NCBI GenBank assembly: GCA_048499675.1
Contig: JASNZL010000001.1
Span: 58,747-122,746 of the forward strand
Length of the DNA stretch: 64,000 bases
DNA from: Candidatus Zambryskiibacteriota bacterium
Lineage (GTDB): Bacteria; Patescibacteriota; Minisyncoccia; Phycocordibacterales; WO2-35-19
Direction: 5' to 3'
The notes beneath the pieces were generated by a model. It worked only from the letters and a program-made list of their open reading frames with translations, was not told where the DNA came from and did no database searches. Made by a program: the position numbers and the translations under genes. This document shows, piece by piece, positions 24,920 through 33,621 of this stretch (its first letter is position 1; the number at the start of each line of letters is the position of its first letter).

Positions 24920-25004
24920 GCCCGAGTGGCGGAATTGGTATACGCAGTCGACTTAAAATCGGCGGCCGTAAGGCTTGTGGGTTCAAGTCCCACCTCGGGC
25001 ACCA
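24920..25004 (+). tRNA. tRNA-Leu (anticodon TAA) with a long variable arm and encoded CCA.
   Basis: GCCCGAGTGGCGGAATTGGTA...GTCGACTTAAAATCGGC...GGGTTCAAGTCCCACCTCGGGCACCA. Its 3' end is the att site of the downstream element. Confidence 0.85.
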
Positions 25005-25160
25005 GAATGGAACTTAACGGTTTTTCGGAGACCGAATTGTGGGCGGCGCAAAGCGCCGCCCACTGATTTCCCCCCATTTTTCCAAACGAATTTGGAGCGT
25101 CGCCTTCGGCGACGCGCACTTTTCTTTCGGCGAGGAGGAGGTGCGAATCAGAAGCAATTT
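24997..25160. repeat. IR-a, left copy. A ~165-bp perfect inverted repeat that includes the att core (tRNA-Leu 3' end) plus ~130 bp of downstream sequence.
   Basis: The reverse complement of 26695..26860 is identical to 24997..25160 by direct comparison (accagaatggaacttaacggtttttcggagaccgaattgtgggcggcgcaaagcgccgcc...gaggaggaggtgcga). Confidence 0.8.
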
Positions 25161-25237
25161 GATTCATAGTATTTGCTTTACAAAAAGAATTTTTGCTATA
25201 ATGAATTTGCGTTCAACTTTTCGGGTCGTCTTTTTTA

Positions 25238-26890
25238 ATGGCCGTCCTAGCCAATTCGAGGCGACTTGAGTTGAACGCACTAGGGCGGCCATTTAAGTTG
25301 AGCGCAAAATATATGGAAAAACAAAAATTCTTTTTGTATGCTCGCAAGTCAACTGATGTCGAGGACAAGCAGGTTCTTTCGATTGAAGCACAACTCACCG
25401 AATTGCGGGCGTATGCACGCGAGAATAATTTGGAAATTTCCGCCGAAATAGTGGAAAAGCAATCTGCAAAATATCCGGGTCGCCCTTTGTTCAACAAGAT
25501 GATGGATGACATTGAAAAGAACGGCGGAAATATTCTCGCGTGGAATCCCGATCGTCTCGCCCGCAATTCGGTGGACGGAGGAAGGATTATTTATCTCCTC
25601 GACACAGGGAAACTTGTGAGCCTAAAATTTCCAACATTTTGGTGCGACAACACATCGCAGGGGAAATTTATGTTGAATATGGCATTTGGCCAAAGCAAAT
25701 ACTATGTGGATTCTCTTTCCGAAAATACGAAACGCGGACTTCGCCAAAAAGTAAGAATGGGTATATTTCCAAGTCAAGCGCCTTTGGGATATCTCAACGA
25801 TTCGAGAACAAAGACGATTGTTGTAGAAAAGAAAAAATCTCGCATTGTGCGCTTGGCTTTTGAGAGATATGTCAAAGGTAATCAACGGCTAGAAGATATT
25901 GCCGAATTTTTGGCGAAGTCCGGCGTTACAACCAGAACCGGAAGGAGAATCTCCAAAACTAGAGCGTCTTTTATCCTTTCCAATCCGTTCTATATCGGAC
26001 TATTCAAATATGGCGGTGAAATCCACGAAGGAAAGCACGAACCAATCATTTCAAAGAAACTTTTTGACGAAGCGCAAGAAATGCTACGCAAGCGCGGACA
26101 ACCTGAACGCAAGCCACAGAATGAACCACAACCTTTCTGTGGTCTCATTTCCTGCGCTTCTTGCGGAATGATGATAACTGCCGAGAACAAAACGAAGCGA
26201 CAGAAGAATGGCAATGTTCATCACTATATTTACTATCGTTGTACCAAAAAGAGAAAAGATTTTAAGTGTAACGAGCTGTCGCTTCGTTCTGAAGAAGTAG
26301 ACAAGCAGTTATCATCTCTCATTCAAAAAGTTTCTTTGCCCAAAGACTGGGCGGAAGAATTATTGAAAATGGCGGAAAATGACCACAAAAAATCCGCCCA
26401 GTCTTTGACTGCTTGCGTGAAAGAAAAAGAGGAAATGATTTCTTCTCTCTCGCAAAAACTGGAGCGACTTCTTAATGGCTATCTCGACCAAATAATTGAT
26501 CAAGTGGACTATACTTCACAGAAATCAAAACTGTTATCTGAAAAGAAGTCGCTCGAAGAAGAAATCTTTACTTTTTCACACAAGCAGAATGATTGGCTCG
26601 CACCCTTTCAATCTTGGCTAAAATACGCTCAATCCTTGGACAAAATTGCTTCTGATTCAGACCTTTTTGCTAAAAAGGTCTGGGCCAAAGAAATCTTTGG
26701 CTCGCACCTCCTCCTCGCCGAAAGAAAAGTGCGCGTCGCCGAAGGCGACGCTCCAAATTCGTTTGGAAAAATGGGGGGAAATCAGTGGGCGGCGCTTTGC
26801 GCCGCCCACAATTCGGTCTCCGAAAAACCGTTAAGTTCCATTCTGGTGTCTTTATTTTACCAAGCTCGCACCTTTTTTCAAAATCGGTGA
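25238..26890 (+). CDS. Large serine recombinase (resolvase/invertase catalytic domain, recombinase domain, zinc ribbon and coiled-coil).
   Basis: N-terminus YARKSTDVEDKQVLSIEAQLTELRAYAREN contains the catalytic Ser. Zinc-ribbon CGLISCASCGM...YYRCTKKRKDFKC. ~480-550 aa. The last ~60 codons run into inverted repeat IR-a', so the true stop may lie earlier. Confidence 0.8.
   Translation: MAVLANSRRLELNALGRPFKLSAKYMEKQKFFLYARKSTDVEDKQVLSIEAQLTELRAYARENNLEISAEIVEKQSAKYPGRPLFNKMMDDIEKNGGNILAWNPDRLARNSVDGGRIIYLLDTGKLVSLKFPTFWCDNTSQGKFMLNMAFGQSKYYVDSLSENTKRGLRQKVRMGIFPSQAPLGYLNDSRTKTIVVEKKKSRIVRLAFERYVKGNQRLEDIAEFLAKSGVTTRTGRRISKTRASFILSNPFYIGLFKYGGEIHEGKHEPIISKKLFDEAQEMLRKRGQPERKPQNEPQPFCGLISCASCGMMITAENKTKRQKNGNVHHYIYYRCTKKRKDFKCNELSLRSEEVDKQLSSLIQKVSLPKDWAEELLKMAENDHKKSAQSLTACVKEKEEMISSLSQKLERLLNGYLDQIIDQVDYTSQKSKLLSEKKSLEEEIFTFSHKQNDWLAPFQSWLKYAQSLDKIASDSDLFAKKVWAKEIFGSHLLLAERKVRVAEGDAPNSFGKMGGNQWAALCAAHNSVSEKPLSSILVSLFYQARTFFQNR
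26695..26860. repeat. IR-a', the inverted copy of the att-core region on the distal side of the recombinase gene.
   Basis: See IR-a. It contains the inverted att core aaaaaccgttaagttccattctggtgtc. Confidence 0.8.
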
Positions 26891-27262
26891 TGTTTCGCAC
26901 GCTCCACGCGCCTTGTGATTTGCAACCGCCAACTACGCTCGGCAACACCAAAGAAAAATGTCTCTTACAACTTTGGTTTTCGCGCAGGATTTTTCTGAAA
27001 AAGGAAAGGATATTTTTCTTTGGTGTTCTGCCCTCAATGCTTCGGGCAGGTGGCGGGGCTACTATGCGGACTCGGTTTTGCCAAACTATTTTTCTGGGGA
27101 TTTGGATTTGGCAAAACCTCGGCTGAATGTTGCCCGCCCGCAGAAAGGGGTCTGGGGAATGAATGCGGGCGGGCTTGTATAAAACCCAAAATTGTGGTAT
27201 GAGTATGGCAGAAGAAATCCTGGTGGATTTCTGAAAATTGCACATTTACAACCCAAAAAGGA
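26862..27262. repeat. IR-b, left copy. A ~400-bp inverted repeat whose inner end carries an SD sequence and an ATG-GAA start, ending at the first cargo gene.
   Basis: The reverse complement is identical to 32945..33356. The inner end reads ...acccaaaaaggaggtgaattATGGAAtgg, and the mirrored copy ...ccattATGGAAtcc on the other side. Confidence 0.8.
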
Positions 27263-31707: not shown

Positions 31708-32933
31708 GACACACCCCCCGACATCGCCAAGTGCTTGAATACAGTCTGCCTGACTGCGTGGGTGAACTTGCTCATCTCGGGGTGAGTAACAAGTCCGTGA
31801 TTGATATCCCAACTCACTACGTGAGCCGGAATCCCGAGGTCGTCCAAGATATCCTGTGCTCGTTCGGCCGTCATGTTGTAGGCAGAACCTTGAGCGCAGA
31901 TTCTCCGTTGGGCCAGGGGGCATCGAGATGCCTCGCATCCTGGCCGCGCGAAAACCTGCACCGAAGTAATGCTCGGAATCTTGAGCATCCGAGTAAGGGC
32001 ACATGACGACTTGAGATAGACGGGAATACCGGGAAAGTGTTCGGCGCTCAGTGAGAAGATGGAATCCACCAACTCCTGTGGCAACGATTTCACATTGTCA
32101 TCCCGAGGGATGTTTGGCATGGGGAGTTTATGAATCTCTACCAGTCCATTCTCGATACCTTCCGTCCAGCGCAGACCACCAGGAACGATCATATCGATGA
32201 CTTCGCTGTAGTGCTTCTTGACCCACAGCATCATCATCTCAATGCGATCCCGATTACCACTCCATTCAGGAACGATTGGTCGCATGTACCACGCGATGGT
32301 GGCACCAGCTTCCTTTGCCTCTTCGGCGTTGAGAAACCGATTATTATGCGCAGGTTCGATCATGTCAGGATTGTCTGCCCAGCACAGCGACAGCATCAAG
32401 CCGCGCGTCGCATTCGAGATGCGGGCGATATCGAGTTTTCTTCCTTTCGGGACTCCGCCCTTGGTAACGATCCAGAAGGGATTTTGAAGACCGCGGCGCA
32501 CGAATGCATCCATGATCTCAAACGTGCTTTCTGTAACCGGTCCAGGTGCAAATGGTTCAGTGCTTGCTGTTCCGATGCTGATGATTGTCTCACCAGCAAC
32601 GAAAAACGGATGCTTGATCAGTTCATCGACGATTTGATCAACGGTGAACTGATTGCGCCGTCTCGGTCTTTTTGGCATTGTGCCCTGATCTGCAAGATCT
32701 TGATGGGTGTCTTGAACGTGGCAGTATCTGCATTGCCAAGAACATCCAACCCACAGATCAATGCTCAGCGAGCTGTTAGACACGCTGACGCACGAGAGCG
32801 GATGATTGCTATCCGGTACAAGAACTCCGTACGTATATTCACGCACAGAAAATTCTCGTCCCGTAGTCATGCCGTTGATTGTGACGCGCGGTTCCGAATT
32901 GGCTGCCACGAAGTATTCCTCCTTGGATTCCAT
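31704..32933 (-). CDS. Radical SAM enzyme (CxxxCxxC), SPL/COG1533-like 'DNA repair photolyase' family.
   Basis: VGCSWQCRYCHVQD is a Cx3Cx2C cluster motif near the N-terminus. 409 aa, GC-rich. The start codon lies in the IR-b' copy (ATGGAATCC). Confidence 0.6.
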   Translation of the reverse strand: MESKEEYFVAANSEPRVTINGMTTGREFSVREYTYGVLVPDSNHPLSCVSVSNSSLSIDLWVGCSWQCRYCHVQDTHQDLADQGTMPKRPRRRNQFTVDQIVDELIKHPFFVAGETIISIGTASTEPFAPGPVTESTFEIMDAFVRRGLQNPFWIVTKGGVPKGRKLDIARISNATRGLMLSLCWADNPDMIEPAHNNRFLNAEEAKEAGATIAWYMRPIVPEWSGNRDRIEMMMLWVKKHYSEVIDMIVPGGLRWTEGIENGLVEIHKLPMPNIPRDDNVKSLPQELVDSIFSLSAEHFPGIPVYLKSSCALTRMLKIPSITSVQVFARPGCEASRCPLAQRRICAQGSAYNMTAERAQDILDDLGIPAHVVSWDINHGLVTHPEMSKFTHAVRQTVFKHLAMSGGVS

Positions 32934-32944
32934 AATTATTCACC

Positions 32945-33356
32945 TCCTTTTTGGGTTGTAAATGTGCAATTTTCAGAAATCCACCAGGATTTCTTCTGCC
33001 ATACTCATACCACAATTTTGGGTTTTATACAAGCCCGCCCGCATTCATTCCCCAGACCCCTTTCTGCGGGCGGGCAACATTCAGCCGAGGTTTTGCCAAA
33101 TCCAAATCCCCAGAAAAATAGTTTGGCAAAACCGAGTCCGCATAGTAGCCCCGCCACCTGCCCGAAGCATTGAGGGCAGAACACCAAAGAAAAATATCCT
33201 TTCCTTTTTCAGAAAAATCCTGCGCGAAAACCAAAGTTGTAAGAGACATTTTTCTTTGGTGTTGCCGAGCGTAGTTGGCGGTTGCAAATCACAAGGCGCG
33301 TGGAGCGTGCGAAACATCACCGATTTTGAAAAAAGGTGCGAGCTTGGTAAAATAAA
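32945..33356. repeat. IR-b', the right inverted copy of IR-b.
   Basis: Reverse complement of 26862..27262. Both copies generate identical spurious ORFs (MCNFQKSTRISS...). Confidence 0.8.
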
Positions 33357-33621
33357 GGCACAAATTTATAGAATAAATTTTGCACAGAGAGCAAGCAAAC
33401 TGCTTTGCTTGCGTGTGGACTTGAAAAGCGGAGCCATGCCGCTTTGCGGCAGGCGAGCTGGGGTCGCGACCTTTTGTGCAACAAAAGAGTTGTGACCAAG
33501 TCCCACCTCGGGCACCAGAATAGAACTCAACGGTTTTTGTAATGTTGCTAATAGAATTTTCATTTAAAAAATTATCCCCATTATGTTTCAGACTATTGTT
33601 CTTATGTGATATAGTCTATAC

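Follow-up and report, generated by a model that had tools for sequence, protein, structure and literature searches.

In a 64,000-nucleotide stretch of a Candidatus Zambryskiibacteriota genome (contig JASNZL010000001.1, positions 58,747 to 122,746; hereafter the window), AT-rich sequence gives way, directly behind a tRNA-Leu(TAA) gene, to a GC-rich block that opens with a recombinase gene. What is this block, where does it begin and end, and how could it have come to stand behind a tRNA gene? An earlier note on this DNA had proposed a large serine recombinase (LSR) element inserted at the 3' end of the tRNA-Leu(TAA) gene of an AT-rich genome of the candidate phyla radiation (CPR), and both the domains of the recombinase and the junctions bear this out. 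The ends of the element are a different matter: the note had put them at a pair of direct repeats, and comparison with related loci instead places the element at 25003-33361, a length of 8,359 nt. We consider it probable that this segment is a non-viral integrative element of a family restricted to Patescibacteria, which would be moved by its LSR, use the 3' end of a tRNA gene as attB and a B-end.CAC.A-end sequence as attP, and carry its genes in two arcs bounded by inverted repeats.

Boundaries of the element

The change in composition at tRNA-Leu is as the note described, with a GC content of 0.344 upstream and 0.484 in 25003-33361, against 0.357 in the window minus that block. The tRNA-Leu(taa) gene itself directly follows tRNA-Cys (ARAGORN; Rfam 56 bits). 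Two inverted repeats dominate the region beyond it. The first, IR-A, is identical at 147 of 147 positions and encloses the body of the LSR gene, and the second, IR-B, is identical at 425 of 427 positions, with both mismatches 4 nt from either end, and encloses 5.66 kb of cargo. As a consequence of these repeats, the 26 nt that come after the tRNA are present three times (25000-25025; inverted at 26823-26848; and at 33513-33538 with 2 mismatches). The left arm of IR-A extends degenerately past its perfect part and has a 45-nt indel relative to the 3' region of the LSR gene (25139-25160 / 26643-26664), so the two copies of IR-A are physically distinct. This arm also contains a terminator-like hairpin (25097-25115), just downstream of tRNA-Leu(TAA). 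At its inner ends, each arm of IR-B provides the ribosome-binding site and ATG of an inward-facing gene (an aldo/keto reductase, AKR, at 27271 on the plus strand and a radical-SAM gene at 32933 on the minus strand), and the repeat folds as a row of hairpins (z-score -3.8). A contig from the Logan assembly of SRR21762701, L081 (L numbers are our handles for loci and contigs), is 100% identical to 27240-32967 of the window. Each of its ends lies 33 nt inside an arm of IR-B, which independently confirms this repeat.

All four junctions in the window have CAC in common. With a slash marking the boundary, and with A-end and B-end denoting the outer ends of IR-A and IR-B, junction 1 reads tRNA...GGGCAC/CAGAATGG, junction 2 (the reverse complement of 26848) reads ...AAAGACAC/CAGAATGG, junction 3 (33361) reads ...AAAGGCAC/AAATTTAT, and junction 4 (33515) reads ...GGGCAC/CAGAATAG. 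A scan of one genome per species returned 352 loci of the family, 80 of which were read and are the basis of all locus counts given here. Among 63 readable tRNA junctions, CAC is present in 59, CACCA in 49, and the T-arm motif GTTCRA at a fixed offset in 54. The junctions tRNA/A-end, B-end/A-end and B-end/trailer have only CAC in common across the family, which is comparative rather than biochemical evidence. The internal B-end/A-end type is represented by 39 distinct instances, and the far junction, B-end...CAC followed by an AT-rich, terminator-type trailer, recurs in about 12 other loci.

The earlier note had suggested searching related genomes for an empty tRNA-Leu site, and one is found in L111, a syntenic relative with 80-88% nucleotide identity and the order IF2-RbfA ... 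Cys-Leu(taa)-Lys(ctt)-Leu(tag) of the window. Its tRNA-Leu(taa) has an identical 3' end, reads ...GGGCAC/AAGTTGTG..., and is followed by tRNA-Lys 131 nt further on; this is an empty site, which diverges from the window right after CAC. Element-free relatives with the same tRNA 3' end likewise read ...GGGCAC/A and do not encode CCA. Eleven other metagenomic tRNA-Leu genes have the same 29-nt 3' end: eight read CAC/A, two read CAC/C and continue with sequence that has no relation to the element, and the remaining one, L098, has a solo A-end relic of 57 nt. A further contig, L112, is 97.6% identical to the left flank of the window and ends exactly at CAC, which is consistent with a branch point at this position, although the same stop could arise from other species that have the tRNA k-mer in common. 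We set the left boundary at 25002/25003 because of the L111 site, the CAC/A relatives and the end of L112. There, the CA supplied by the element completes the encoded CCA of tRNA-Leu(TAA). The right boundary is set at 33361/33362 because of the family-wide B-end...CAC/trailer junction, together with L017, in which an LSR-free tRNA-Leu(taa) is directly followed by a module resembling the segment (Zseg) that adjoins the element in the window.

A promoter scan of the region yields 6 matches where 3.2 are expected, a weak excess. The best promoter-like match, TTGAAA-16-TGnTAAAAT (10/12), lies at 26854-26881 (-) and is mirrored at 33326-33353 (+), within the first 36 nt of IR-B and facing outward. 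From the right arm, transcription would enter the host flank, and from the internal arm it would run antisense into the 3' end of the LSR gene, where the mirrored terminator-like hairpin (26733-26751) sits.

The recombinase and its C-terminal tail

As the note had stated, the first gene of the block is that of a large serine recombinase; its product has Resolvase, Recombinase and Zn_ribbon_recom domains. The resolvase catalytic domain (PF00239, E 9.6e-22, residues 7-150) contains the motifs YARKST and DRLAR, and is followed by matches to the Recombinase domain (PF07508, E 5e-18) and the zinc ribbon (PF13408, E 2e-08, 34.9 bits against a cutoff of 25.3). R11, S13, D80, R81 and R84 are invariant in 36 LSR sequences, as is a cysteine cluster formed by C276, C281, C284, C310 and C319. 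By these domains and catalytic residues we classify the protein as a large serine recombinase. It aligns to A118 integrase residues 34-204, the nearest solved structure. An AlphaFold2 model built with 36 close homologs predicts two long helices, at 343-391 and 397-446, with a predicted local distance difference test score (pLDDT) of about 80 for 370-420; the model is poor overall, with a mean pLDDT of 51, and not good enough for a fold search. The NCBI gene call begins at 25238 and gives 550 aa; an exact look-up of the 525-aa form, which begins at MEKQ, returned no record, the NCBI call being the only one on record.

Several other recombinase types were considered for this protein. Among curated models, those that come closest are CcrB (135 bits against a cutoff of 900; 3e-39) and XisF, with CcrC at 72 against 900 and CcrA at 72 against 700. 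All scores are far under the cut-offs, and a Ccr-type identity was rejected on these NCBIfam equivalog cut-offs and on the target, which is a tRNA gene and not rlmH. An IS607-family transposase, which is a small recombinase with a MerR-like HTH ahead of its catalytic domain, was rejected because NF033518 scores 23.5 bits against a cutoff of 110 and matches the catalytic part only. A small serine invertase of the Hin/Gin/Pin kind has about 190 aa with a C-terminal HTH, in contrast to the 525 aa and LSR C-terminal domains found here, and the repeats of 147 and 427 nt do not fit its short inverted sites either. No tyrosine recombinase was found in 25003-33361 among the open reading frames and Pfam matches.

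The reading frame of the LSR gene does not end within its own arc. It begins at 25313, crosses the right arm of IR-A (IR-A'), which encodes residues 464-512, and has its last 13 codons in IR-B, with the stop at 26890. In 58 of the 80 loci, LSR homology ends at residue 512, abutting the 3' end of a convergent tRNA gene. The first 40 nt of IR-B are its most conserved part, and 42 distinct B-ends encode V-x-L-[LF]-Y-Q-x-R-T-[YF]-F-Q-N. Codon variation in this tail is synonymous (Arg519 is CGC in 15, CGA in 11, AGA in 15 and CGG in 1; Leu is CTA or TTA, Thr is ACN and Phe is TTT or TTC), so the native C-terminus of the LSR is encoded across the B-end/A-end junction. Among the best 120 database proteins, which range from 471 to 649 aa, about 30 have the native tail as judged by eye; the others read into an antisense tRNA, ...G[LF]EP....

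The family across Patescibacteria

Databases hold about 8000 homologs of the LSR, of which the best 120 are 71-93% identical and, where named, belong to Patescibacteria. Many of the contigs on which they lie are only 1.7-2.1 kb long, and fewer than 900 nt separate the LSR start from a contig end in 48 of the 80 loci; assemblies therefore break at the repeat. The loci that abut a tRNA gene span 21 anticodons and 12 amino acids. IR-A pairs are present in 39 loci, where identity has a median of 98.1% within a locus and 62.4% between loci. Since 30 of these 39 pairs fall short of 100% identity, they are not collapsed-repeat artefacts; the repeats are real, and they evolve concertedly. In 14 loci, B-like inverted repeats of 104-405 nt flank a variable cargo of 1.4-5.2 kb that adjoins IR-A. 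The full layout can be followed on a 138-kb contig (L090), which reads B-cargo-B'/A-LSR-A'/tRNA-Val, and the orientation seen in the window, with the tRNA beside the left arm and the gene pointing away, also occurs in L013, L039, L061, L066 and L087-L089. We were unable to find the family in viral contigs, where the scan gave only an unrelated LSR at 27% identity. A full-text literature search, which left most subscription journals outside its coverage so that a prior description is possible, returned no description of this LSR family. The window element is thus a member of a large and apparently undescribed CPR family.

Partial forms of the layout are also present. An LSR unit stands between two convergent tRNA genes in L018, L048 and L049, and B-bounded cassettes lack the family LSR in L082/L083 and L105/L106. 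In L105/L106 (9604-9900), a decayed LSR 3' remnant lies beside tRNA-Arg(tct) and is followed by a cassette (radical SAM, two alanyl-tRNA synthetase (AlaRS)-type genes, S51, AKR) with 109-nt inverted repeats, which looks like an immobilised, recombinase-less derivative. In L082/L083 (12290-12330), two B-bounded cassettes meet head to head through a 32-nt perfect palindrome (CATCAAAAAACCGGCTATGGCCGGTTTTTTGATG); the nearest LSR there is 45% identical and 7.6 kb off. One further contig, L065 (3467-13738), contains a perfect 4,352-nt inverted repeat made of host flank, cargo, LSR, cargo and host flank. We rejected it as a real B/LSR/B form, as a 4.35-kb repeat that is perfect and extends into host flank has the look of an erroneous assembly path where repeats had collapsed. 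It serves as a warning for automated analyses of family loci.

A model for integration

We propose that attB is the 3' end of a tRNA gene, which would be recognised by its T-arm at a fixed distance, its acceptor strand and CAC; as the T-arm and CAC are features common to tRNAs, many different tRNA genes would be used. The predicted attP is B-end...CAC/CAGAAY.GAACT... (A-end). Exchange within CAC, which the LSR would catalyse, would yield attL (tRNA/A-end, completing CCA) and attR (B-end/tRNA trailer) and leave no long duplication. The element has two arcs, IR-A / LSR / IR-A' and IR-B / cargo / IR-B', so that its integrated form would keep a second, inverted attP at 26823-26864. Excision would restore tRNA/trailer and free a circle in which the two copies of an inverted repeat of about 570 nt, each holding one attP site in opposite orientation to the other, separate the LSR arc from the cargo arc. 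For the window, the predicted empty junction is ...CCTCGGGCAC/AAATTTATAGAATAAATT.

The presence of two attP sites would have consequences for the recombinase itself. Insertion through the attP at the 3' end of the LSR gene would swap the tail for a tRNA-antisense read-through, the commonest state in databases. The native tail would be kept, as in the window as assembled, if the other attP were used or the segment between the IR-A arms flipped. Choice of either attP would yield both observed orientations through a canonical reaction; homologous exchange between the arms would equally give both orientations and explain the concerted evolution of the repeats. A retained attP further predicts two kinds of derivative, an LSR unit between two tRNA genes and LSR-free, B-bounded cassettes, and from such derivatives (L018, L048, L049, L082 and L105) the internal attP appears to be active. 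One could speculate that the tail swap regulates LSR activity.

Several observations weigh against this model. No recombination product of this copy was seen, either as a circle junction or as an isogenic tRNA/Zseg empty site, and a metagenome scan with the tRNA-Leu 3' end returned empty sites in other species and no isogenic tRNA/Zseg site. The right flank of the window differs from L111, so the right boundary lacks an isogenic counterpart. No recombination directionality factor was identified, and the 166 nt between IR-A and the LSR start contain no candidate for one. The attP consensus has no clear dyad symmetry (9/18 positions at best, which is not informative). A flip of the LSR segment would need either attL x attP, which is non-canonical for an LSR, or homologous recombination. 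Finally, the 147 nt of IR-A are 100% identical in the window, so the assembler could have chosen the orientation of the LSR segment arbitrarily, and likewise that of the cargo between the 427-nt arms.

It is possible, although we hold this idea tentatively and with some doubt, that these elements form a new class of integrative element. Its recombinase would be complete only across attP, its two inverted attP copies would let attP use or a flip act as a lock/unlock or directionality switch that dispenses with a separate factor, its internal attP would be a platform for cassette exchange, and its LSR would reach a broad range of targets through the T-arm and the ...ACCA end. If this is true, housekeeping-type genes such as those for aminoacyl-tRNA synthetases (aaRS) and nucleotide metabolism spread among CPR lineages by cassette exchange, and deletions and inversions between tRNA genes follow.

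Alternative explanations

The note's own explanation is the classical one, in which the element spans 24984-33541 and its direct repeats are an attL/attR identity block, formed by a regenerated tRNA end and a displaced fragment. The direct repeat (24984-25025 / 33497-33538) is real and far beyond chance at 42 nt with 2 mismatches, the GC content falls only after 33538, and islands in tRNA genes are as a rule marked by a regenerated target together with a displaced fragment (PMC4383910). The repeat is not, however, the last ~45 nt of the tRNA, as the note had it. Only 19-21 nt are tRNA, and the remaining 21-23 nt (25003-25025) are the outer end of IR-A, matching the A-end consensus at more than 50 different tRNAs. 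The second copy is composed of the 19-nt tRNA end of a tRNA-linked module and a relic A-end, and modules of this kind, Zseg with its tRNA-end copy T', follow LSR-free tRNAs. No such repeat occurs family-wide, where the junctions have only CAC in common and the far one is B-end/trailer. Under the classical explanation, an isogenic empty site would have ...CACCAGAATAGAACTCAACGGTTTTTGTAATG after the tRNA, and if the direct repeat were native trailer, empty sites in close relatives would show CAGAATAGAACTCAACGG...GTAATG immediately behind it; in relatives, the native trailer begins CAC/A.... We regard the classical explanation as already largely refuted and very unlikely to be correct. A two-module origin is also unlikely, if less so: here an insertion sequence-like LSR unit of 1.85 kb (IR-A/LSR/IR-A') and a separate IR-B cargo cassette would dock side by side, in an integron-like manner. 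This would account for the cargo-less units between two tRNAs (L018, L048, L049), the B-bounded cassettes without the family LSR (L082/L083, L105/L106), the many LSR-only database contigs of ~1.7-2.1 kb, and the cargo cassettes found as their own contigs of 5.7-5.9 kb in many samples. Yet the conserved tail of the LSR is encoded only when its frame runs on into the B-end, and short contigs are expected where repeats break assembly, as the 48 of 80 LSR starts near a contig end illustrate. Every junction type seen (T/A, B/A, B/Z and T/Z, for tRNA, A-end, B-end and Zseg) is predicted by attP x attB of a single element with two attP sites, including the cargo-less and LSR-less derivatives, and no A'/A or A'/Z junction was seen.

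Two segments bounded by inverted repeats, homologs that some sources name 'DNA invertase Pin-like', and an LSR segment that occurs in both orientations in databases might together suggest a host-encoded switch, in which the recombinase would be an invertase that flips segments to control expression and would not be mobile. The protein nevertheless has the 525 aa and the Recombinase and zinc-ribbon domains of an integrase, in contrast to the ~190-aa Hin and Gin; the unit occupies, from genome to genome, 21 different tRNA species, its site in the syntenic L111 is empty, and cargo differs between loci. We give a switch of this kind hardly any weight. Even less probable, to the point of being negligible, is an assembly artefact, whether a mis-joined GC-rich contaminant or palindromes made by the assembler. 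Both inverted repeats are perfect or nearly so, and the palindromic L065 is probably itself a wrong path. Against this, the tRNA/A-LSR-A'/B-cargo-B' layout recurs in dozens of independent Patescibacteria assemblies from many projects, with arms that are less than 100% identical in 30 of 39 cases, the left copy of IR-A runs on beyond its perfect part and differs there from the LSR gene by a 45-nt indel, and both cargo ends of L081 enter the same repeat. The same recurrence, and the 100% match of the independent Logan assembly over the cargo, rule out the mis-joined contaminant that the note had named as its own possible refutation.

Cargo and feature map

Table 1 Features of the window from tRNA-Leu(TAA) to the right flank of the element; a slash marks a junction.
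Feature	Coordinates	Strand	Basis
tRNA-Leu(TAA), target gene	24920..25004	+	ARAGORN, Rfam; encoded CCA completed by element (CAC/CA)
Putative attL crossover core CAC, left boundary (discriminator A and first C of CCA)	25000..25002	.	59/63 family junctions; L111; L112
IR-A left arm, non-coding inverted copy of LSR codons 464-512	25000..25146	.	147/147 complementary to 26702-26848
LSR upstream region with promoter-like TTGCTT-18-TGCTATAAT (inferred promoter) and degenerate IR-A continuation	25147..25312	+	Sequence; inverted repeat I5
LSR, 525 aa from MEKQ	25313..26890	+	Pfam PF00239, PF07508, PF13408
IR-A right arm (LSR codons 464-512)	26702..26848	.	Family homology stops at residue 512 (26848)
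Internal attP-like junction, inverted: A-end / GTG (reverse complement of CAC) / B-end	26823..26864	.	Sequence; 39 family instances
IR-B left arm: LSR tail codons and stop, hairpin-rich leader, ribosome-binding site and AKR ATG	26846..27272	.	425/427 complementary to 32935-33361
Aldo/keto reductase (AKR), 245 aa	27271..28008	+	Pfam PF00248
Class-II aspartyl-tRNA synthetase (AspRS)-type gene, 303 aa, shortened	28005..28916	+	Pfam, NCBIfam
Aspartate--tRNA(Asn) ligase, 435 aa, GC 0.585	28930..30237	+	NCBIfam NF003483, 487 bits, above cutoff
S51 peptidase, GC 0.372	30260..30934	-	Pfam PF03575
251-aa protein, DUF4037-like	30952..31707	-	Gene call in L081; weak Pfam match PF13228
Radical-SAM-like protein, 409 aa, ATG abuts IR-B right arm	31704..32933	-	Weak Pfam and NCBIfam matches
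IR-B right arm	32935..33361	.	Complementarity to left arm
Putative attR core CAC, right boundary (B-end...CAC/trailer)	33359..33361	.	~12 other loci
Flank outside element: tRNA-linked module, Zseg 33362-33496 and T' 33497-33515 (19-nt tRNA-Leu 3'-end copy)	33362..33515	+	Module homology
Flank: 23-nt A-end relic (CAGAATAGAACTCAACGGTTTTT)	33516..33538	+	Matches family A-end consensus

The cargo genes match the note's list and are an AKR, two class-II aaRS-type genes of the D/K/N group, a radical-SAM-like, a DUF4037-like and an S51 gene. The note's proposal that they came from a different lineage, possibly a host organism, did not hold, as their closest relatives are CPR genes; for the AspRS and radical-SAM proteins, relatives 78-95% identical are found in Patescibacteria. 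Relatives of the 435-aa AspRS are 67-95% identical, and the named ones are almost all from Patescibacteria, Jorgensenbacteria, Gracilibacteria or Parcubacteria; the radical-SAM protein has CPR relatives at 78-93% identity, many of them on contigs of 5.7-6.0 kb. These CPR homologs of the AspRS and radical-SAM proteins rule out a non-CPR donor; the genes thus come from a pool of other CPR lineages with a higher GC content. The AspRS gene lies together with a 440-aa paralog in a repeat-free context on a Jorgensenbacteria contig of GC 0.5-0.55 (L086), and the same pair is found inside a cassette of raised GC bounded by 385-nt inverted repeats in a 695-kb genome of GC 0.38 (L082/L083).

Versions of the 440-aa paralog occur in L082, L086, L091 and L092, and the window copy is cut to 303 aa and lacks the anticodon-binding domain. 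This first aaRS-type gene (28005-28916) starts with a GTG that overlaps the AKR stop codon. The missing domain and the overlap together suggest a deletion joint inside the cargo cassette at 28005-28916. A sister cassette (L105-L109) has the same AKR, S51, 251-aa and radical-SAM genes, with AlaRS-type genes replacing those of the AspRS type. The S51 gene does stand out by its GC content of 0.372 within cargo of 0.48-0.59, as the note had observed. It is equally AT-rich in the sister cassette of other genomes (0.40 in L105/L107), and it is thus an old feature of the cassette and not, as the note had suggested, DNA captured or retained from this host.

The right flank and tRNA-linked modules

Beyond the element, the GC content falls only past 33538. 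In the window, a module of about 100-180 nt follows most tRNA genes, among them Leu(taa), Leu(tag), Glu, Ser, Phe, Tyr and Lys. Five of these seven modules end in a copy of the last 19 nt of their own tRNA, starting in the T-loop; for Lys and Tyr this is not clear. Zseg and T' are one such module, in which 71 nt are 83% similar to the module after tRNA-Phe, and homologous modules follow LSR-free tRNAs in L017 and L043. We read 33516-33538 as a probable relic A-end of an earlier, related insertion at T', comparable to the solo A-end relic beside tRNA-Leu in L098.

The modules lie at 33362-33515, 34443-34590, 34746-35100, 46813-47008, 47300-47740, 56847-57062 and 16160-16323 in the window, and at 1960-2385 in L017 and 2396-2500 in L043. 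They have a conserved core, ..AATCGAAAG.CGGAG..GAG.CGGGGTCGCG..GTGAC, and an internal segment complementary to the tRNA-end copy that changes with the identity of the tRNA; RNAalifold gives 26 pairs, 14 with compensatory changes. They could be relics of small elements that integrate at the T-loop, or a tRNA-like RNA of a new type. Rfam returned no known RNA family in IR-A, IR-B or the modules, at gathering thresholds or at E<=1, and its matches in the region are tRNAs and one sub-threshold RNase P RNA only. Tandem module units are present at 34731-35100 after tRNA-Leu(tag) (178-nt units, 97% identity) and at 47281-47740, where three copies of the tRNA-Glu 3' end go with 135-nt units of 99% identity, which suggests repeated insertion or unequal exchange at the tRNA-end copies.

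Other features of the surrounding sequence include a 244-aa open reading frame resembling LAGLIDADG-type homing endonucleases (33622-34356, plus strand), with counterparts at 7118-7849 in L111, where there is a faint Pfam match, and just after tRNA-Leu in L099. As it lies downstream of tRNA-Leu(taa) in the window and upstream of tRNA-Cys in L111, it appears to be mobile within the tRNA cluster. The GC-richer stretch after tRNA-Leu(tag) is explained by a bacterial RNase P RNA (35289-35683, minus strand; full model, 83 bits against the Rfam gathering threshold of 100, E 1e-23). Further repeats in the window are three units of ~483-492 nt with ~71% identity at 38793-39936, three of ~246 nt with ~73% identity at 50650-51381, and a dispersed 130-nt pair with 86% identity at 20421-20550 / 60127-60256.

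Implications and comparison with known systems

The recombinase would be a serine integrase that naturally targets the ends of nearly all kinds of tRNA gene. This is unusual in a class known for single-locus specificity, and it raises the hypothesis that recognition relies on the T-arm plus CAC. With ~8000 recombinase sequences and 352 loci in species-representative genomes, the family would be an abundant vehicle of gene flow among CPR bacteria, whose mobile elements are poorly known, and its cargo includes aminoacyl-tRNA synthetases and core-type genes with the composition of other CPR lineages. The nested inverted repeats explain the frequent breaks in CPR assemblies beside tRNA genes, and the orientation of segments in such contigs may be arbitrary. 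With its LSR frame running across attP and its two attP sites, the element hints at a mode of regulation that has not been described for serine integrases, and a retained internal attP is a possible mechanism for rearrangements between tRNA loci.

The recombinase resembles the LSR integrases (A118/LI, Bxb1 and phiC31; CcrAB of SCCmec; XisF; TnpX/TndX) in its domain order of resolvase, recombinase and zinc ribbon with a putative long helical insert, in its catalytic Arg/Ser/Asp-Arg..Arg motif, and in att sites with few common bases. SCCmec also inserts at the 3' end of a conserved gene, rlmH, and leaves the gene intact. The window element differs from these systems in targeting the 3' ends of many tRNA genes and not one locus, and in a recombinase gene that crosses attP, with two inverted attP-like junctions in long inverted repeats; its family is absent from viral contigs and all curated models score far below their cut-offs.

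Two systems based on tyrosine recombinases share parts of the architecture. In SSV1-type archaeal integrases, attP lies inside the integrase gene, which is split in two on integration. The window element likewise has a recombinase gene that spans attP and is altered by integration, but only the last ~13 codons are exchanged, and the duplicated 3' end (IR-A) and the second attP would let an intact version persist. The yeast 2-micron plasmid, with its FLP recombinase and FRT sites, replicates as a plasmid and does not integrate. The circle that we infer resembles it in having two long, concertedly evolving inverted repeats, each with a recombination site, that separate two unique arcs; it differs in that an LSR is used, that the element integrates, and that flipping is here a possibility only.

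Islands of tyrosine integrases of the Islander type split a tRNA gene, regenerate it from a carried copy and leave a displaced fragment (PMC4383910). Here too the targeted tRNA gene is left functional. An Islander-type tyrosine island was nevertheless rejected on the lack of a tyrosine recombinase and on insertion after the last tRNA base; the window element lies directly behind the last coding base and brings along no copy of the tRNA, and the fragment-like T' comes from a separate, LSR-independent module. The closest concept is that of the tycheposons of Prochlorococcus, which are also cargo elements of streamlined genomes, use several tRNA genes, and leave remnants and partial tRNAs at their sites. 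Large serine recombinases are rare among them; tyrosine recombinases are used by 910 of 937 tycheposons, with identity blocks of ~40 nt (partial tRNAs), and many have replication genes (10.1101/2020.12.28.424599). The window element differs in its CPR host, its LSR, its 3-nt identity (CAC), its lack of replication genes and its nested inverted repeats. Membership was rejected because there is no identity block past CAC and the nearby partial tRNA belongs to a module seen at LSR-free tRNAs. Among LSR integrative elements, the one described here is set apart by its generic tRNA-end target, its attP-crossing frame and its nested inverted repeats with a second attP.

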